Source: an uncultured Alphaproteobacteria bacterium (GTDB lineage: Bacteria; Pseudomonadota; Alphaproteobacteria; RF32; CAG-239). From it: a stretch of 64,000 bases of DNA. Shown here one piece after another: positions 834 to 60,199 of the stretch. The notes beneath the pieces are model-generated. The model had not been told where the DNA came from. It saw only the letters and a program-made list of their open reading frames with translations, and did no database searches. Made by a program: the position numbers and the translations under genes. The stretch covers positions 3,590 to 67,589 of the forward strand of contig CALXUQ010000002.1 in assembly GCA_944391725.1 (NCBI GenBank), read 5' to 3'. The stretch's first letter is position 1. Every line of letters starts with the position of its first letter.

Positions 834-909
834 GGGCGCTTAGCTCAGCTGGAAGAGCATCTCGTTTACACCGAGAGGGTCGGGAGTTCGAACCTCTCAG
901 CGCCCACCA
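834..909 (+). tRNA. tRNA-Val (anticodon TAC), CCA encoded
   Basis: The cloverleaf can be drawn by hand. The acceptor is GGGCGCT/AGCGCCC, the D-stem GCTC/GAGC, the anticodon stem TCTCG/CGAGA with loop TTTACAC, the T-arm GGGAG-TTCGAAC-CTCTC, with discriminator A and CCA. Confidence 0.9.
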
Positions 910-913
910 AAAA

Positions 914-941
914 GTCCACCTCAAATGGTGGATTTTTTTTG
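914..941 (+). terminator. rho-independent terminator after tRNA-Val
   Basis: A GTCCACC-tcaaat-GGTGGAT hairpin is followed by T8. Confidence 0.7.
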
Positions 942-954
942 TGCTTGGATTTGG

Positions 955-1186
955 CGAGATGAGGGGTTCGAACTCCCGAGGAAGGGAGTTTGACAACAAA
1001 CTTCGCTTTAGTGAAGTGCAGTTGGAAGGAAGACGTAGTCGACGATCCGAGCAAAGCGAGGACGCGCAGTGCATAGCGCGTGCGCACGACAAGCGAAAGG
1101 CGGACGAGAGTACGCCGGTGAGCCTTGGCTCATGAGCGTCAGTGCAACTCAAGCAGCGCGCAGAGTACACTCTCAGCGCCCACCAA
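955..1186 (+). repeat. tRNA-Val-associated composite repeat: inverted copy of the tRNA-Val T-arm, hairpin, ~100-nt unique segment, 75-nt conserved core, then a 16-nt direct copy of the tRNA-Val 3' end
   Basis: Positions 965-977 (GGTTCGAACTCCC) are the exact reverse complement of tRNA positions 882-894. Positions 984-994 (GGGAGTTTGAC) copy the T-arm 5' strand. Positions 1093-1167 are 95% identical to 58067-58141. Positions 1170-1185 (CTCTCAGCGCCCACCA) repeat the tRNA 3' end (894-909). Confidence 0.75.
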
Positions 1187-1220
1187 AAAGTCCACCTCAA
1201 AGGGTGGATTTTTTTTGTGC
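1187..1220 (+). terminator. second copy of the tRNA-Val terminator hairpin
   Basis: AAAAGTCCACCtcaaagGGTGGATTTTTTTT is a near-identical duplicate of 910-941. Confidence 0.6.
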
Positions 1221-1297
1221 TTGGATTTGGCGAGATGAGAGGTTTGAACTCCCAAGAGGTCGTAGGATTTATTGTGAAAGTTTGGAGTAAATGGGAA

Positions 1298-1545
1298 AAT
1301 TCGAAGATCCCTGGATGTTTTTCTGCGAAAAACGAGGGATGACTTTAAATAATGCTGGTGCAATCGAGAGATGGCCAGCACAGCTGGTGCGCGGCACGAC
1401 AAGTTAAAGGTTGAGAGTTTGTGACCAAGAGCAGAAATGCTACCGATGTGTCGATTGCTTAAATTAATTCGAAGATCCCAGGATGTTTTTCTGCGAAAAA
1501 CGAAGGATGACTTTAAATAATGCTGGCGCAATCGAGGGGTGACCC
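1298..1545 (+). repeat. 168-bp tandem duplication (unit 1 at 1298-1465; unit 2 at 1466-1545, truncated)
   Basis: AATTCGAAGATCCCtGGATGTTTTTCTGCGAAAAACGAgGGATGACTTTAAATAATGCTGGtGCAATCGAG occurs twice with 3 mismatches. Unit 1 continues into a diverged copy of the core (GCGCGGCACGACAAGTTAAAGGTTGAGAGTTTGTGACCAAGAGC). Confidence 0.7.
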
Positions 1546-1554
1546 CTTGATATC

Positions 1555-1586
1555 AAAAAAAACTCCTCAGTTTGAGGAGTTTTTTG
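1555..1586. terminator. bidirectional terminator hairpin (A7-ACTCCTCAgttTGAGGAGT-T6)
   Basis: A perfect 8-bp stem flanked by an A-run and a T-run lies between the repeat region and the convergent gene ending at 1607. Confidence 0.65.
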
Positions 1587-38377: not shown

Positions 38378-38453
38378 GGGTGCATAGCTCAGTTGGTAGA
38401 GCAACTGACTCTTAATCAGTGGGTCTGGGGTTCGAACCCCCATGCGCCTACCA
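38378..38453 (+). tRNA. tRNA-Lys (anticodon CTT), CCA encoded
   Basis: The acceptor is GGGTGCA/TGCGCCT (with G:U pairs), the D-arm GCTC-AGTTGGTA-GAGC, the anticodon stem ACTGA/TCAGT with loop CTCTTAA, and the T-arm TGGGG-TTCGAAC-CCCCA. Confidence 0.85.
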
Positions 38454-38458
38454 TTCGT

Positions 38459-38492
38459 AAAAATCGTCTTAATTTGTTAAGGCGATTTTTTT
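38459..38492 (+). terminator. terminator hairpin after tRNA-Lys
   Basis: AATCGTCTTAAtttgTTAAGGCGATTTTTTT is a hairpin followed by a T-run. Confidence 0.6.
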
Positions 38493-38699
38493 ATATCCAT
38501 ATTAAGGGGTTCTCACCCTAAAGGGTTCTTCTGGCTCGTAAGTGTTTTTACAAACACTAACTCGCTGCGGTCACTTGGTTTGTAACATTCGTTTCGCGTC
38601 GCAGGCAGCGCCTGAGGCATCAGTTAGTTGCTTTACGTATATGCCTTGTATCCGCGATGCTTTCTATGTGCCGGTTGCTTGAATTAATTTGTAGCTTCC

Positions 38700-38760
38700 T
38701 TCACGATTGCTCCACAATCGTGTGATGACTTTAAATAAGACTAAAGCAATCGAGAACAGC
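38700..38760 (+). repeat. third copy of the GATGACTTTAAATAA...GCAATCGAGA motif, preceded by the hairpin CACGATTGctccaCAATCGTG
   Basis: GATGACTTTAAATAA (38723-38737) and GCAATCGAGA (38745-38754) are shared with 1338-1366 and 1506-1534. Confidence 0.6.
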
Positions 38761-38797
38761 AATTATTTAAACAATATGTGGAATAGGTTGCAAATTC

Positions 38798-40213
38798 CTA
38801 AAATTTCAAAAGCGGCAGTAAGAACGAAAAGCAACTCCCTCGCCCCGGAATGCTGGAAATTTCGATTTTGGTATCAATCACGGCGGCAATTTTGCTCACG
38901 ATGGTTAATCCCAGCCCTGCTCCTTGTTTACGGTTATCAATAATTTGCGGACTTTGGTAAAATTCTTCAAAAATCTTGTTTCTTTCTTGTTCCGAGATGC
39001 CAGGACCATTGTCTAAAATCATAATCCGGATATGGTCTTGCTCTCTTTTGCAACCCAAAACAATTTTGCTTTGGGTATACTTAAACGCATTGCTCAACAG
39101 ATTGCGAATGATACGCTCAATGAGTATGGGGTCGCTATAAACCTCTCCGTTATGCACCAAAGTATGAAATTTGATGTGTTTGCATGAGGCTAGCTCAGCA
39201 TATTCTTTAGCAATATTCCTGATTAAGCTACCAATGTTGAACTCTTGTGGCTCATATTTAATTCCGCCGGAATCTAATTTGGAAATATCCAGCAAGTTAT
39301 TGAGCAAATTGTTTAAATTATGCGCCGAGGCTTCAATTTTTTCTAAAATTTCTTGTTGTTTCTTGCTCAATCCTTCATCAAACATAGCGGCTATAAAGAT
39401 ATTTAGGGCCTGCATGGGTTGGCGCAAATCATGGCTGGCTTGAGCTAAAAAGTATGATTTATCGCGGTTGGCTTTCTCGGCCATAAATTTGGCTTTTTCA
39501 AGCGCTTGCTGAGTTAGGATAAATTTGCTGACATCTTGAAATGTGCCGGCAATCTTGCTTTGCGCGCCTTCTTGGATGACGGAGGCTTTGTAAACACAAT
39601 AAATTACCTGATTATCCGCGCGGCGTATTCTTAGTTGCCCCTCAACCGGGTGGCGATGTTTTATCAGCTCTTGGAGTTGAGCCCAATATTGTGGCAAGTC
39701 ATCGGGGTAGACATAATCCTTAAAAATATTGCGCTTATATCTCACTTCTTGCGGGTTTACGCCAAATATTTTATACATTTGTGCGGACCAATAAATCCGT
39801 TTATGGTGCCAATCAAATTCCCAATAGCCAAGCTGAGCAATGTTTTCGGCAAAGTTTAGCCGAGAGCTTAATTGTTTTAGCTCGGCGGAGAGTTCGGTCT
39901 TTTCGGTGATATCATGAAAACAGACGGCACAATGATTAGCGTGGGGATAAAAACTGGTTTGATACAGCCTATCGCGAACCATCAAATGGCTCATTTGCGG
40001 GGCTTGACGACGCATACTCTCTTGATATGTTTGGTAAAAATCGGAAAATTCGCCCTGAGGCAATTGAGCTCCTAAGTCGCCTTGAGGGGTGGCCACTTCT
40101 AAAATTTGCGCATTTTGGTTGGCAAGGCAAATCTTACCTTGTTTATCCATCATGACCAAAATATCGGTGGCGGCGTCGGCCAGTTGGCGGAAAGCAAATC
40201 CTTGGTTGTTCAT
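38798..40213 (-). CDS. sensor histidine kinase, cytoplasmic PAS-PAS-HisKA-HATPase type (no TM, no adjacent response regulator)
   Basis: It has the H-box ASHDLRQPMQALNIF, the N-box LLSNAFKYT, G1 DNGPGI and G2 GAGLGL. Two PAS-like regions are upstream. Confidence 0.8.
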   Translation of the reverse strand: MNNQGFAFRQLADAATDILVMMDKQGKICLANQNAQILEVATPQGDLGAQLPQGEFSDFYQTYQESMRRQAPQMSHLMVRDRLYQTSFYPHANHCAVCFHDITEKTELSAELKQLSSRLNFAENIAQLGYWEFDWHHKRIYWSAQMYKIFGVNPQEVRYKRNIFKDYVYPDDLPQYWAQLQELIKHRHPVEGQLRIRRADNQVIYCVYKASVIQEGAQSKIAGTFQDVSKFILTQQALEKAKFMAEKANRDKSYFLAQASHDLRQPMQALNIFIAAMFDEGLSKKQQEILEKIEASAHNLNNLLNNLLDISKLDSGGIKYEPQEFNIGSLIRNIAKEYAELASCKHIKFHTLVHNGEVYSDPILIERIIRNLLSNAFKYTQSKIVLGCKREQDHIRIMILDNGPGISEQERNKIFEEFYQSPQIIDNRKQGAGLGLTIVSKIAAVIDTKIEISSIPGRGSCFSFLLPLLKF

Positions 40214-56459: not shown

Positions 56460-57740
56460 TTATCTTTTCTTGTGTAATTTTCGGTCAGGAACCGGAACGG
56501 CAAAGCCAATTTCGGGATTATAATTATTGATTTTGTTTAATAAATTATAATCGGGATAGCCATCGGCCGGAAGTTTGGCCAAGGCTTGAACCTTCTTAAT
56601 TTCTTCCCTGGTTTGATGACCGAGTTTGCCATCTTCGGCAATGTTGCTGCCAATCAATCGATTGATAAAGGCCTGAACTTTGGTGATGTCATCAGTTTTG
56701 AGCCGGGTGGCGGGAGCTTGTTGGATGGCCTGCCATTTTTTGCCGGTCTTTATATAGTCGGCCAAAAGCCCAATGGCCAGAGCATAATTCTCGGAGCGAT
56801 TCCATTTCATTATCAGCCAGAAATTATCCAGCACCAAGTAAGCGCGACCTTTGCGGCCGTCGGGAAGTAAAATGGTGGCTTGCCAGTCCGAATTGAGCGG
56901 AAGTTTCTTGTTGCCTAGGGTTCTTACTCCGATTTTTTGCCATTCTTTAACGGTTTTCTTATGTCCCTTCCCGCTTTGGGCAAAATCAAAATTCCAGGGC
57001 AAGCTTACTTCCATACCCCAAGGTTGATCTTTATTCCAACCTATGGAATGTAGATAATTGGCGGCGGAGGCAGCGGCGTCTTCAAATGAGTGCCAGATAT
57101 CAATTTTGCCATCGCCGTTATAGTCAACCGCATAGGCATTGAAGGTGGAAGGAATAAACTGGTAGTGTCCCATGGCGCCGGCCCAAGAGCCAACCATACG
57201 TTCGGGCTCAATTTGAGTCTGATCCAAGATCTTGAAGGCGTTGTACAACTGTTCCCGGAAAAATTTGGCGCGGCGTTTATCATAGCTTAACTGCGTGAGA
57301 GAGCCAATAACCGAAAAATTGCCATAATTACTGCCGTAGTTGGTTTCGGCACCCCAAAAGGCGACCAAATATTCCGGCTGGACTCCGTATTTGTCCTCAA
57401 TGTTTTTGAACAGAGGATATAATTTTTGATAGTTCTCGCGTCCCTTTTTGATACGCAGTGGGTGGACCATGCGGTTTAGGTATTCGGGTGAGGTCAAAAC
57501 AAACTCGGCTTGTTTGCGGTCAATGCGTACGACTTCCGGTGCGGGATGATAATAGTCGGTTTTTTCATAGGCTTTATCGATGGTGGTTTGAGAAATGCCG
57601 CGAGAGACCATATCGGCTTTCAAATCATTGAGCCAGAGGGTATAAGTATGGTGTTCCGGATCTTGCAATACGCTTGATGAGGCGCAACAAGATACCATCA
57701 GTGCAAATGAAAATGTGGTAAGTGTCAGTTTTATCTTCAT
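56460..57740 (-). CDS. mltB: lytic murein transglycosylase (MltB/Slt35 family) with C-terminal peptidoglycan-binding domain
   Basis: It has a lipobox and the MltB core (AFWGAETNYG...; catalytic Glu in ETN). The C-terminal PG-binding repeat is ...GKLGHQTREEIKKVQ. The start is set at the internal Met (57740). Confidence 0.75.
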   Translation of the reverse strand: MKIKLTLTTFSFALMVSCCASSSVLQDPEHHTYTLWLNDLKADMVSRGISQTTIDKAYEKTDYYHPAPEVVRIDRKQAEFVLTSPEYLNRMVHPLRIKKGRENYQKLYPLFKNIEDKYGVQPEYLVAFWGAETNYGSNYGNFSVIGSLTQLSYDKRRAKFFREQLYNAFKILDQTQIEPERMVGSWAGAMGHYQFIPSTFNAYAVDYNGDGKIDIWHSFEDAAASAANYLHSIGWNKDQPWGMEVSLPWNFDFAQSGKGHKKTVKEWQKIGVRTLGNKKLPLNSDWQATILLPDGRKGRAYLVLDNFWLIMKWNRSENYALAIGLLADYIKTGKKWQAIQQAPATRLKTDDITKVQAFINRLIGSNIAEDGKLGHQTREEIKKVQALAKLPADGYPDYNLLNKINNYNPEIGFAVPVPDRKLHKKR

Positions 57741-57889
57741 TCTCAAACCCCGTAATTTGAGTATATTATATTTGATAATGGTAAACAAATTTATAAAATT
57801 GCACTAATATTGATAAAATATAAAAATAGTTCTTGACCTTTTATTTGCTTTTGGGTAAAAAGGCGAAGTAAACCACACATACTAAGAGT

Positions 57890-57979
57890 GGAGAGGTGGC
57901 AGAGTGGTTTAATGCAGCGGTCTTGAAAACCGTCGAGGGGGCGACCCCTCCCAGAGTTCGAATCTCTGCCTCTCCGCCA
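57890..57979 (+). tRNA. tRNA-Ser (anticodon TGA), long variable arm, CCA encoded
   Basis: The acceptor is GGAGAGG/CCTCTCC, the anticodon loop CTTGAAA, the long extra arm CGAGGGGGCGACCCCTC and the T-arm CAGAG-TTCGAAT-CTCTG. Confidence 0.85.
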
Positions 57980-57983
57980 TTAT

Positions 57984-58017
57984 AAAAAAGACGACCTTTA
58001 GGGTCGTTTTTTTTATA
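57984..58017 (+). terminator. terminator after tRNA-Ser (AAAAAAGACGACCtttaGGGTCGTTTTTTTT)
   Basis: A perfect hairpin is followed by T8. Confidence 0.7.
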
Positions 58018-58027
58018 ATTAGAGATA

Positions 58028-58152
58028 TGGATTGATTCGAACTCTGGGAGAAGAGTTCGACTACCAGCGAAAGGCGGACGAGAGTACGCCGGTGAGCTTT
58101 AAGCTCATGAGCGCCAGTGCAACTCAAGCAGCGCGCAGAGTAATCTCTGCCT
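58028..58152 (+). repeat. tRNA-Ser-associated composite repeat: inverted T-arm copy, hairpin, 75-nt core, then an 11-nt direct copy of the tRNA-Ser T-loop/acceptor strand
   Basis: Positions 58036-58049 (ATTCGAACTCTGGG) are the exact reverse complement of tRNA-Ser CCCAGAGTTCGAAT. Positions 58067-58141 are 95% identical to 1093-1167. Positions 58142-58152 (ATCTCTGCCTC) copy tRNA positions 57961-57971. Confidence 0.75.
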
Positions 58153-58175
58153 CAACTATAATGCAAATTGCTCAC

Positions 58176-58892
58176 TTATCTTAGGTGTTCTATGCCGGTC
58201 TTGACCACTTTGGCCGGATTGCCCGCAATTATGGTGTTTTCTTCTTTGAATTTTCTGCTCACTACACTTCCCATCGCAACGATTGTTTGATTGGGAATGG
58301 AAGCATTCTTGGTAAATTGACTGTTTTGGCAGATCCAACAGTTATCACCTATCATTACTTCGTATTTTTGATTGTTGATAATTTTATTGCTAGCTTTGTC
58401 TATAATTGTATGTCCATCAGCGGTCCAAATAGTGATGTTTTTGGAAAAAAGTGCCCGATTACCAATCCAACACGAGGTTTCATTTCTTATAACTAATTCT
58501 AATCCCCAAATACTTGCTTCTTCCCCTATATGACAATGTTGGTTTTGTCCGTCGCAACATTTAATTAATGTATTGCGAATTTTTCCGTTGCGACCAATAT
58601 CTATTTGGCAATTATTGCCGGTGCATTTTATGATTGAATTTTCAAATATACACGGAAATCCAATCTTGATGAGGTTGTTTGTTCCCCTTAAGATTATTTT
58701 TAGTCCTTTTATACGGCCAAATCGCAGCCTTTTTTCTCCTTTGGAGCTTACTAAAAAAATTTGGTTGTGAGAACCGCTAATAAGGTACATGCCGGGAATG
58801 AGTGAAGTTAAGTGTTTTAGTTTGTGTCGAAAATTGCGACGTTGTGCTTGGGGAATGAATATACTCAATAAATTGAAAATCAGTTTAAGCAT
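58176..58892 (-). CDS. hexapeptide-repeat (left-handed beta-helix) acyltransferase
   Basis: Imperfect hexad repeats run through the C-terminal half (IGDNCWICQNSQFTKNASIPNQTIVAMGSVV). The gene is AT-rich relative to flanking core genes. Confidence 0.6.
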   Translation of the reverse strand: MLKLIFNLLSIFIPQAQRRNFRHKLKHLTSLIPGMYLISGSHNQIFLVSSKGEKRLRFGRIKGLKIILRGTNNLIKIGFPCIFENSIIKCTGNNCQIDIGRNGKIRNTLIKCCDGQNQHCHIGEEASIWGLELVIRNETSCWIGNRALFSKNITIWTADGHTIIDKASNKIINNQKYEVMIGDNCWICQNSQFTKNASIPNQTIVAMGSVVSRKFKEENTIIAGNPAKVVKTGIEHLR

Positions 58893-58949
58893 TGGTTTCC
58901 TCCATCCAAAATAAAATGAAACCCACCAATTTTTGGTGGGCGGATGTTC

Positions 58950-59085
58950 AGAAACCGTAATACAATTAGAACGGCTCGACCTATTTGGCTCGTAGCCTTA
59001 TTCAGCCGACATCCGTCCGTGACAGAAATCGGCATGATTGTTTAAAGTCGGCATGCTCTGCGACTAATTGTATTAAGGGTTCTGA
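58950..59085. repeat. imperfect inverted repeat pair (~22 bp arms) enclosing ~85 bp
   Basis: TCAGAAACCGTAATACAATTAG (58950-58971) matches CTAATTGTATTAAGGGTTCTGA (59064-59085); the 12-nt core TAATACAATTAG is a perfect palindromic match. Confidence 0.55.
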
Positions 59086-59344
59086 CGCCCTGAACTTAAT
59101 ATTTTTAAGTCTGATTTGAACTTATTCTAAAAATTTTATCAATTCAAGTGATTTTTAATTGTGACATTAATTAATTGTTTGGAAAAATTATAACTCAGGT
59201 GTGTTCTTGTATAATATAAAGTTTTTTGTTGTATAAAACTTAATTATATTCTGGAAATTTGTGTGGTTAGTTGTTATAACCAAGTTAGTGTTTGGCTTTT
59301 TTTGTATAAAATTAGCTATGCTCTGGACTAATTGAGGATTATAT

Positions 59345-60199
59345 ATGACTAAAATTTCTGTACTTATGCCGGTGTATAAAACTCCTGAAACTTATTTGCG
59401 GGAGGCGATTGAAAGTATCTTAAATCAATCCTATAGTGATTTTGAACTGGTAATTTTAGATGATTGTCCTGATGATAATCGGGAACAAATCGTCAAATCT
59501 TATCGTGATAAACGTATAAAATATTTGCAAAATGAAAAAAATCTCGGAATTACGCCTAGTCGGAACAAATTGATTGCTCTTGCAAAAGGAGAATATTTGG
59601 CCATATTTGACCATGATGATATCTCTTTGCCGGACAGGCTTGCCAAACAAGCGGCCGTACTAGATGCTAACCCTGATATCGGGGTGGTCGGTTGCCAAGT
59701 GGAATTTTTTCAGAATCAATCTAGAATTAGTAAGTATCCTCAAAATGACCAAGATATCAAAGTTGCTTTGATGGCAACTTGCGCGCTTATTCATCCGGGG
59801 GCAATGCTCCGAAAAAAAGTGCTGACCGATAATCATATTGGCTATGAACAAGAGTTTTCTCCGTCTGAAGATTATCGCTTGTGGTGTAGGTTGATTCCAT
59901 TTACCAAATTTTACAATATTCCCGAAGTGTTACTGCGTTATCGGGACCATGATTGTAATACTTCTAAAATTCAAAAAGCTAAAATGGCAGCGGCAACTCG
60001 GGCAATTTTTGCACAGGTGCGTTCTGAAAATCCGGTTTTATACAATCGTTTCTTGATGGAGGCAACCAAAGTTTATCAATTTAATCTATTTGGGATTATC
60101 CCGATTGTGACAATTAAAATTCAGTTGATGCGTGCAAAAGTTTATTTATTCGGTGCTTTGTTGATTGCTTCTTGTAAGTGGTCGTGTAAAATCAGGTAA
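59345..60199 (+). CDS. family 2 glycosyltransferase
   Basis: ISVLMPVYKTPETYLREAIESILNQSYSDFELVILDDCPDD is the GT2 N-terminal signature with the DxD region. Confidence 0.8.
   Translation: MTKISVLMPVYKTPETYLREAIESILNQSYSDFELVILDDCPDDNREQIVKSYRDKRIKYLQNEKNLGITPSRNKLIALAKGEYLAIFDHDDISLPDRLAKQAAVLDANPDIGVVGCQVEFFQNQSRISKYPQNDQDIKVALMATCALIHPGAMLRKKVLTDNHIGYEQEFSPSEDYRLWCRLIPFTKFYNIPEVLLRYRDHDCNTSKIQKAKMAAATRAIFAQVRSENPVLYNRFLMEATKVYQFNLFGIIPIVTIKIQLMRAKVYLFGALLIASCKWSCKIR

Follow-up and report, generated by a model that had tools for sequence, protein, structure and literature searches.

The 64,000-nucleotide stretch analysed here (the window), part of contig CALXUQ010000002.1 from an uncultured alphaproteobacterium, carries two copies of a short conserved core, one behind its tRNA-Val(TAC) gene (locus 1) and one behind its tRNA-Ser(TGA) gene (locus 2). 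This core is the conserved part of an undescribed family of protein-less elements located behind tRNA genes in a clade of uncultured gut Alphaproteobacteria. The initial annotation had drawn attention to it as a repeat with a compensatory base-pair change in a hairpin; the main feature, beyond that hairpin, is the embedding of the core in a partial copy of the T arm of the adjoining tRNA. We hold the anatomy of these elements, and selection on their structure, with high confidence, and consider the chances about even that they are non-autonomous cassettes specific for tRNA T-loops and carrying a structured RNA.

The repeat is real. The sequences GCGAAAGGCGGACGAGAGTACGCCGGTGAGC and CAGTGCAACTCAAGCAGCGCGCAGAGTA each have two exact occurrences in the window (1093 and 58067, and 1140 and 58115, respectively) and none elsewhere in it, shuffled sequence yields an expectation of 0 matches to the repeat halves at up to three mismatches, and a repeat finder returned the same two copy pairs, with cores ~95% identical. 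A covariance model derived from the family scores copy 2 at 79.5 bits and copy 1 at 73.7 bits, the next best score in the 64 kb being 11.9 bits, and found no core copies in the window or the fetched loci beyond those already known. The near-identity described in the initial annotation therefore stands, but the second copy measures 76 rather than 75 nt, and the likeness between the loci begins before the repeat as first delimited, at 1086 and 58060. High identity between the loci is limited to the core, the flanks being specific to each tRNA.

Four differences separate the two copies. Three of them (C1124/T, an extra A and G1127/A) lie at the apex of the second core hairpin (hp2), where the C and G of copy 1 close a CUUG-type loop, so that the C:G to T:A change concerns the apical pair. 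It was correctly described as compensatory, but the stem that it preserves is not a plain 6-bp helix: hp2 reads GU-GAGC(C/U)-loop-(G/A)GCUC-AU, with 5-6 Watson-Crick pairs plus a U-A pair and a conserved basal G.U. The fourth difference, the T/C transition T1139/C58114, is likewise confirmed but is not unpaired, since it falls in the outer stem of the third hairpin (hp3), where U.G becomes C:G. In the predicted folds every difference between the copies is thus pairing-neutral on the + strand.

A genome collection was scanned with the 18-mer of the first core hairpin (hp1), and a metagenome collection with an hp1 pattern that allowed any base in the two inner stem pairs (four bases); such pattern scans also gave chance matches in GC-rich genomes. 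The family comprises ~21 distinct sequences from metagenome-assembled genomes (MAGs) and metagenome contigs of uncultured gut and rumen Alphaproteobacteria. Coverage of the host genome is the window, and that of related genomes consists of loci of up to ~14 kb, referred to below by L numbers. One of these copies (L044) came from a blastn search and lies in GenBank MT837473.1, deposited as 'Bacteriophage sp.'. This record contains ordinary bacterial genes and a tRNA-Met gene followed by a unit with the same core, and inspection of translations indicated one MnmA-like and one DsbD-like open reading frame (ORF); it looks like a mislabelled fragment of a bacterial chromosome.

The units are gene-less and 110-280 nt long. 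Those carrying the present core (type-1 units) lie, in all cases with an available flank, ~50-75 nt behind an intact tRNA gene and its terminator and on the same strand, and they are associated with nine tRNA species: Val(TAC), Ser(TGA), Pro(GGG), Pro(TGG), His, Val(GAC), Lys, Gly and Met(CAT). A unit opens with an inverted copy of the adjoining tRNA's T arm and a purine-rich loop of 4-7 nt, continues with a direct copy of the T-stem 5' strand and T-loop bases 54-58 (TTYGA) followed by the core, and closes with AAT, which completes the T-loop, then the 3' strands of the T-stem and the acceptor and CCA; a further terminator copy usually comes next. At both window loci and in the family, the core is therefore found at T-loop position 58/59 of a partial second tRNA copy, with a ~10-bp hairpin (P1), in which the inverted T-arm piece pairs with the direct one, shortly before it. 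The 5' arm of P1 is the reverse complement of each tRNA's own T-stem and T-loop, including the variants TTCAAAT, TTCGAG and TCCGA, and the P1 loop consists of purines only in 9/13 units (for example GAGGAA, GAAGAA or GAGAAA) and is purine-rich almost everywhere.

Agreement of the right flank with the 3' end of the local tRNA reaches 17-19 of 19 or 16 of 18 positions in 9 of the 13 tabulated units, with a more diverged copy in L036 (15/19). Beside the intact tRNA, a repeat of the tRNA 3' end flanks the element at locus 1 (894-909 equals 1170-1185), at locus 2 (57962-57972 equals 58143-58153) and at most other loci. The left junction follows TTYGA in most copies, TTCA in L040, and TTYGAA or TTCGG in the His, L028 and L015 units, with at most one A repeated. 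This layout, comprising the T-loop 58/59 siting, P1 and the flanks, is directly apparent from the compared sequences. One tRNA gene, tRNA-Ser(CGA) in L016, has no unit and is followed by a terminator and a gene.

Table 1 Features at the two core-bearing loci (positions in the window)
Feature	Position	Strand	Basis or content
Intact tRNA-Val(TAC)	834-909	+	ARAGORN; Rfam tRNA, 64.9 bits
Intrinsic terminator of tRNA-Val	909-940	+	Terminator scan; direct repeat
Inverted copy of tRNA-Val 3' end	953-977	+	Sequence
Element 1, P1 loop GAGGAA	978-983	+	Sequence, fold
Element 1, P1 3' arm GGGAGTTTGA	984-993	+	Sequence, fold
92-nt expansion, two extra hairpins	994-1085	+	Comparison, fold; present in element 1, absent from element 2
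Conserved core, copy 1	1086-1169	+	Repeat, covariance model, fold
Copy 1 junction ACGACAAGCGAAA	1086-1098	+	
Copy 1 hp1, GGCG-G-AC-GAGA-GU-A-CGCC	1099-1116	+	
Copy 1 hp2 (hairpin first noticed)	1117-1133	+	
Copy 1 hp3	1136-1159	+	
Copy 1 tail	1160-1169	+	
Repeat, copy 1	1093-1167	+	75 nt
Second tRNA-Val 3' end CTCTCAGCGCCCACCA	1170-1185	+	T-stem 3' strand, acceptor 3' strand, CCA
Second terminator copy	1185-1216	+	Terminator scan
Distal decayed unit	1229-1560	+	Sequence, repeat finder, covariance model
Intact tRNA-Ser(TGA)	57890-57979	+	ARAGORN; Rfam
A-run/hairpin/T-run terminator after tRNA-Ser	57984-58014	+	Sequence; scan reported the hairpin only in minus-strand reading
Element 2, hairpin P1	58034-58060	+	Sequence, fold
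Conserved core, copy 2	58061-58142	+	Repeat, covariance model, fold
Copy 2 junction	58061-58072	+	
Copy 2 hp1	58073-58090	+	
Copy 2 hp2	58091-58108	+	
Copy 2 hp3	58111-58134	+	
Copy 2 tail	58135-58142	+	
Repeat, copy 2	58067-58142	+	76 nt
Truncated tRNA-Ser copy ATCTCTGCCTC	58143-58153	+	T-loop end, T-stem 3' strand, first acceptor bases

At locus 1 (Table 1), the flanks of element 1 derive from the T arm and 3' end of tRNA-Val (882-909). The inner 17 nt of the inverted copy (961-977) match the reverse complement of the tRNA-Val T arm at 16/17 positions; within them, 965-977 forms the 5' arm of P1, and its reverse complement GGGAGTTCGAACC is tRNA-Val sequence. The 3' arm reproduces the T-stem 5' strand and T-loop bases 54-58 of tRNA-Val with C56 changed to T. 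A direct repeat of 87 nt with 95% identity (894-980 and 1170-1256) takes in the 3' end, the terminator and the inverted piece, the terminator of the intact tRNA being the first copy of the stretch repeated within 1170-1256. The 16-mer at 1167-1182 differs from tRNA-Val by 2 mismatches, both in the three bases preceding 1170. Locus 2 follows the same plan minus the 92-nt expansion. Here the T arm and 3' end of tRNA-Ser lie at 57952-57979, the P1 5' arm GATTCGAACTCTG agrees with the reverse complement of the tRNA-Ser T-stem 5' strand and T-loop at 13/13 positions, and a GGAGA loop and the 3' arm AGAGTTCGA complete the hairpin; neither CCA nor a terminator follows the truncated tRNA copy. Hairpin expansions of ~90-100 nt between P1 and hp1 occur in two members, element 1 and L023 (GCGAAAC..GGAAAGG), at slightly different insertion points.

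A single compensatory pair in two copies is anecdotal when taken alone, and the structural claim is instead supported by the wider family. RNAalifold predicted P1, hp1 and hp2 from 12 trimmed units, with double changes in 10/19 pairs. In an alignment of 19 sequences, 85% of the cells of the named helices are paired, compared with 15-44% when the partners are slid, and the covariation score of 0.237 is reached by none of 500 shuffles (0.097 +/- 0.016) and lies above the values for slid partners (at most 0.098), with changes on both sides in 7/13 pairs. Hairpin hp1 consists of four pairs, a G.A, two further pairs (7 pairs counting the G.A) and a GNRA loop. At the fourth pair, 12 sequences have G:C, 6 have A:U and 1 has G.U; the hp1 stem occurs as GGCG/CGCC, GGCA/UGCC, GGCG/UGCC and, in one copy, GCGA/UCGC. 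The register of hp2 is kept in 19 members despite changes of stem (GAGCC/GGCUC, GAGCU/AGCUC, CGGC/GCCG, CGCC/GGCG, CGGCU/AGCCG, and a tandem G.A in UGAGC..GCGAA), with a U-A pair and, in 16/19, a conserved G.U at its base.

Strain variants of locus 2, recovered via contigs encoding the neighbouring protein, read GAGCU-UUA-GGCUC in hp2 (L046 and L047), a U.G intermediate between the C:G of locus 1 and the U:A of locus 2 in the window. For most of their length, P1, hp3 and a decayed tRNA fragment included, the two tandem units of L036 are identical; they differ by three G:C/C:G swaps in hp1 and hp2, in the hairpin loops (the hp1 loop is GAGA in one unit and GGUA in the other), in the first three core bases and in a few terminator bases. 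The hairpins hp1 and hp2 look like hypervariable, possibly specificity-determining parts. Because of the covariation, the U.G intermediate strains and the base-pair swaps in L036, the inference of the initial annotation that its hairpin is under structural selection, rather than neutral repeat debris, is supported: hp1, hp2, hp3 and P1 are kept by compensatory and G.U-type changes on the + strand.

Folding energy by itself is weak evidence, with whole elements more stable than their shuffles (z = -2.8 and -2.2) but the 75-nt core by itself ordinary (z = +0.33 and -0.74). Both strands of the whole unit fold about equally, so that folding energy does not identify the strand. The G.U pairs, of which P1 has 5, are specific to the + strand. 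As to whether selection acts at the RNA or the DNA level, the balance leans towards RNA, and we infer that the core is a structured RNA made in the orientation of the tRNA. In the pseudo T-loops, the cytosine of the CpG in TTCGA(A) has repeatedly changed to T on the + strand, giving a G.U pair in P1 (window 984-993 and 1240; L008, L013, L015, L016 and L020), and G-to-A was never seen; this bias fits selection for G.U pairing in P1 or strand-biased deamination.

Known classes of sequence do not account for the units. At the gathering threshold, Rfam 15 detected only tRNAs in the window, permissive searches of 780-1620, 38440-38810 and 57980-59350 returned only unrelated families far below the gathering score, and ARAGORN found three tRNAs, with no transfer-messenger RNA (tmRNA) and no extra tRNA; a known RNA family was accordingly rejected. 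Hammerhead and other small ribozymes and the ends of group I or II introns were dismissed by eye, as the motifs CUGAUGA/GAAA, GUGYG...AY and a terminal G are lacking, in agreement with Rfam. Protein coding was likewise rejected, since only short overlapping ORFs occur, on both strands, and the hairpin loops contain indels whose lengths are not divisible by three. When viral contigs were scanned for exact patterns, there were 0 matches or chance matches in coding regions, the lone 'phage' match being the mislabelled bacterial contig described above, and no plasmid match was found. Miniature inverted-repeat transposable elements do not fit either, in that the ends (CTAC.../...AGAGTA) pair only partly and only in some copies, and the flanking repeats are tRNA sequence of 11 to ~115 nt. 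Literature searches returned no description of such elements.

In most units the minimum-energy fold pairs the 5' inverted copy with the tRNA-like 3' end and leaves an NCCA overhang. Such a closed, tRNA-like form is compatible with resident, non-mobile host genes for small stable RNAs behind tRNAs, in which the acceptor/T-stem end serves processing and stability (RNase P, 3' trimming) and gene conversion maintains their likeness to one another and to the adjoining tRNA. The long-conserved structure and its covariation across divergent hosts, the retention of T-loop bases 54-58 at the left junction and the invariable position of the units on the tRNA strand are consistent with this explanation. 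We nevertheless regard it as improbable, because the tRNA-like 3' end is decayed or truncated in several units whose core is intact (window 58143-58153, L036, L040 and L015), so that this end is not needed, and because the number of units varies between strains and species, some tRNAs have no unit, and several unrelated cores occupy the same kind of site. A promoter is also lacking, none of sigma-70-like type being predicted between the tRNA terminator and the unit at either locus.

The closing fold invites comparison with the tRNA-like domain of tmRNA and with the Y RNA YrlA, which share the predicted pairing of a 5' segment with an acceptor 3' strand ending in NCCA and a large structured domain on the T-stem. 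However, the units are not recognised by ARAGORN or Rfam as tRNA, tmRNA or Y RNA, their tRNA-like part copies the adjoining tRNA and decays, and the extra domain departs from the T-loop and not from the anticodon-stem position. The tRNA-like closing stem is probably a by-product.

The sites behind tRNA genes also carry other modules and show signs of turnover. Arrays occur in L003, where units of types 1 and 2 alternate, in L036, with two type-1 units, and in the window at 941-1560. Since the decayed tRNA fragment is identical in both L036 units, that array grew by tandem duplication. In the tRNA-Val array of the window, the proximal unit is intact and the distal one decayed; the latter contains a second inverted T-arm copy (1229-1253), a degenerate type-1 core (1389-1426, GCGCGGCACGACAAGTTAAAGGTTGAGAGTTTGTGACC; the covariance model gives 11.9 bits nearby, at 1350-1399) and two copies of an unlike 79-nt module (1298-1376 and 1466-1544). 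One 168-nt period of the distal part is missing in several strains.

Unrelated cores sit at equivalent sites. The type-2 core (..GAGTGGTGAGCAGCACCG..AAGCGAACAATACGAAG-hairpin-CGCAGG), which alternates with type 1 in tRNA-His arrays, has tRNA-His flanks of the same kind in L003, L005, L013 and L014. A third module is found behind tRNA-Lys and in the distal part of locus 1; this second repeat family of the window (TTGCTTRAATTAATT, a long hairpin, GATGACTTTAAATAA..GCAATCGAG; 1298-1376, 1466-1544 and 38716-38755) is confined to sites downstream of tRNAs, namely the distal tRNA-Val array and the stretch behind tRNA-Lys, and has no Rfam match. The region behind tRNA-Lys(CTT) (38454-38800) consists of a terminator, a T-arm-like inverted repeat GGGGTTCTCACCCTAAAGGGTTC (~38506-38528) and ~270 nt of non-coding sequence; a copy of the tRNA-Lys 3' end was looked for in this region and none was found. 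This stretch may be an older unit of another type.

Strain comparison at locus 2 revealed an insertion of a different kind. L046, a strain variant of window 57700-58200 (features at reverse-complement coordinates 470-930), has an extra gene-less unit of 215 nt, placed after tRNA-Ser and before the type-1 unit and bordered by an 18-nt repeat CCTCTCCGCCATTATAAA of the tRNA 3' end. This unit is present or absent among strains, and both type-1 units are found in every strain examined. Upstream of its intact tRNA, L046 also carries a partial tRNA-Ser 5' half that extends as far as the anticodon loop, together with 118 nt; the upstream gene of L046 differs as well and encodes a cold-shock protein. 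In L005, the tRNA-His fragments beside the units have podovirus-like portal and endolysin genes between them. The arrays, the 215-nt unit, the missing 168-nt period and the phage genes of L005 are characteristic of recombination at tRNA attachment sites, the newer material lying closest to the tRNA.

Integrase activity of this kind could in principle have left the units as neutral debris, that is, as attachment-site arms remaining from deleted phages or islands, in which hairpin-templated mutation mimics compensation. The tRNA 3' fragments, the arrays and the phage genes at tRNA-His are typical of it, and the junctions of L046 coincide with the T-loop, the acceptor 3' end and the anticodon loop, the three classic sublocations for integration into a tRNA gene. 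This origin is very unlikely, however, given that the core is conserved with structure-preserving substitutions in many species and at nine tRNA species while the flanks decay. The same short architecture recurs everywhere, whereas independent deletions would give varied remnants, and templated mutation yields neither G.U intermediates nor tandem G.A alternatives. The viral contig scans, moreover, found no copy, and the sole blastn match in the phage collection was the mislabelled contig.

We therefore return to the reading introduced at the outset, a non-autonomous cassette specific for the tRNA T-loop. Under this model, a unit would enter at the T-loop/3' part of a tRNA gene by site-specific recombination, catalysed by a recombinase encoded elsewhere and acting in trans. 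The crossover would fall just 3' of the core, in the block from A59 to CCA, between the chromosomal tRNA gene and a circular unit bearing a replacement 3' end and terminator. The tRNA would stay intact and its old 3' end be displaced downstream, as in Campbell-type integration, and arrays would expand and contract by recombination between the repeated tRNA ends. Among simple exchanges, only the Campbell-type one reproduces the observed order of parts. The occurrence of the same core beside two different tRNAs in one genome, each with local flanks, counts in favour of mobility or duplication. Other geometries were rejected. With an integron-like or CTX-like exchange placed at the left (TTCGA) junction, it would be the proximal tRNA that is interrupted, and not the distal copy; a folded single-stranded circle exchanged on its bottom strand would leave the core inverted; and insertion of a whole cassette at a distal docking hairpin would bring in flanks of a foreign tRNA.

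The element behaves most like a miniature integrative element at a tRNA gene. Genes for tRNAs are classic landing sites of phages and genomic islands, and a T-loop sublocation is reportedly used by tyrosine integrases (Williams 2002). Integrative elements at tRNA genes and their cis-mobilisable derivatives (CIMEs) resemble the present units in having their site at the 3' side of the tRNA, an intact tRNA and, on the far side, a displaced 3' copy that starts in the T-loop, as well as in forming tandem arrays whose older distal units decay. Unlike those elements, however, the units span only 110-280 nt and carry neither an ORF nor an integrase; their conserved part is a folded, RNA-like core in place of protein-binding arm sites; and the core interrupts the T-loop of the displaced copy, is preceded by an inverted T arm, and recurs at different tRNAs.

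Several points weigh against the cassette model. No empty site or excised circle of a type-1 unit was seen, and no recombinase was identified at the searched loci. Among the best Pfam and PHROG families for 62 ORFs within ~4 kb at 12 loci, a listing of the top 25 families that weak matches could escape, there is no integrase or transposase, and the same holds for the best families of 10 small ORFs in the window. Transcription, for which no promoter is predicted, would need read-through and is unproven, and the same covariation would also follow from a folded + strand of DNA. In a plain Campbell model each element must carry sequence that matches its own tRNA, and the restriction of identity to the core fits better with movement of the core alone or with gene conversion. 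The model further leaves unexplained the inverted T-arm copy, with its family-typical purine loop, before every core, the position of the core in the middle of the would-be crossover site, and the presence of one core at two different tRNAs with flanks that match locally. Finally, all external copies were found via hp1-based patterns, so that the invariance of the hp1 loop stems partly from the design of the search.

The units might instead represent a new class of mobile element, namely a protein-less, RNA-encoding cassette that targets T-loop position 58/59 of any tRNA and, on insertion, rebuilds the tRNA and copies the T arm both ways. The structured RNA, with its GNRA hairpin and compensated hypervariable stems, would then act in targeting or recombination, as a guide, bridge-like RNA or ribozyme for an enzyme, and not as mere cargo. 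We consider this unlikely.

The left junction bears on a further explanation, in which the units are relics of a single-strand DNA transposon, non-autonomous and of IS200/IS605 type, resembling palindrome-associated transposable elements (PATEs), with DNA hairpins recognised by an HUH (Y1) transposase. Insertion would take place 3' of a TTCGA exposed in the T-loop of a DNA hairpin, and the right end might supply a guide RNA matching the tRNA 3' end. Such an origin would account for insertion directly 3' of TTYGA, for the lack of a clear target duplication and of terminal inverted repeats, for subterminal hairpins, with hp1 ~12 nt from the left end and hp3 ~8 nt from the right, and for the CGAA just 5' of hp1, which complements TTCG (in L016, CAAA goes together with TTTG); the strand-specific pairing constraints and the lack of a promoter are equally compatible with it. 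It is nonetheless quite unlikely. All ~21 copies lie in tRNA T-loops, which exceeds the specificity of a 5-nt target, and hp1 and hp3 are dissimilar, whereas the end hairpins of IS200/IS605 elements resemble each other. These transposons make no duplications, leaving the intact tRNA, the second 3' end and the inverted T arm unexplained, and a guide matching the adjoining intact tRNA would be self-destructive. The GNRA loop, tandem G.A and conserved G.U are more typical of RNA, and TnpA or TnpB is found near no copy: Y1 (HUH) transposases, RAYT and TnpB were all unseen near the copies in the window and the related loci.

Comparison with the corresponding short elements gives a similar picture. 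PATEs, repetitive extragenic palindromes (REP) and REP doublets forming hairpins (REPIN) are likewise short, gene-less and hairpin-rich, insert 3' of a fixed short sequence, show strand-specific pairing, and have neither inverted terminal repeats nor a target duplication. The present units differ in occurring only in tRNA T-loops inside partial tRNA duplicates (at all readable flanks) and in having dissimilar end hairpins. Integron cassettes with attC sites also form arrays of short units, some of them non-coding, with an imperfect palindrome at the insertion point and strand-specific pairing. However, the units have no R or L core sites, integron integrase or attI, and their palindromes are sequence of the adjoining tRNA; an integron-type product, with the cassette inside the proximal site, would be the reverse of the observed order. 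Inspection for RYYYAAC...GTTRRRY sites found none, GTTCGAA misfitting GTTRRRY and the palindromes being T-arm and terminator sequence, and an integron cassette was rejected.

Elsewhere in the window, a long non-coding stretch with several inverted repeats (58893-59344) lies upstream of a glycosyltransferase-like gene. Its sole Rfam signal is a weak, sub-threshold match to the small RNA family sRNA-Xcc1 (58930-59018, - strand; E = 0.037).

If the cassette model is true, the core would represent a structured-RNA family new to Rfam 15, and the units a new and very small form of tRNA-targeted element in gut Alphaproteobacteria with small genomes. They would offer a system for asking how T-loop-specific recombination proceeds without a linked recombinase, and a test of whether an RNA can take part in its own insertion. 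In practical terms, the partial tRNA copies and the hairpins that follow tRNA genes in these MAGs are not noise from assembly.

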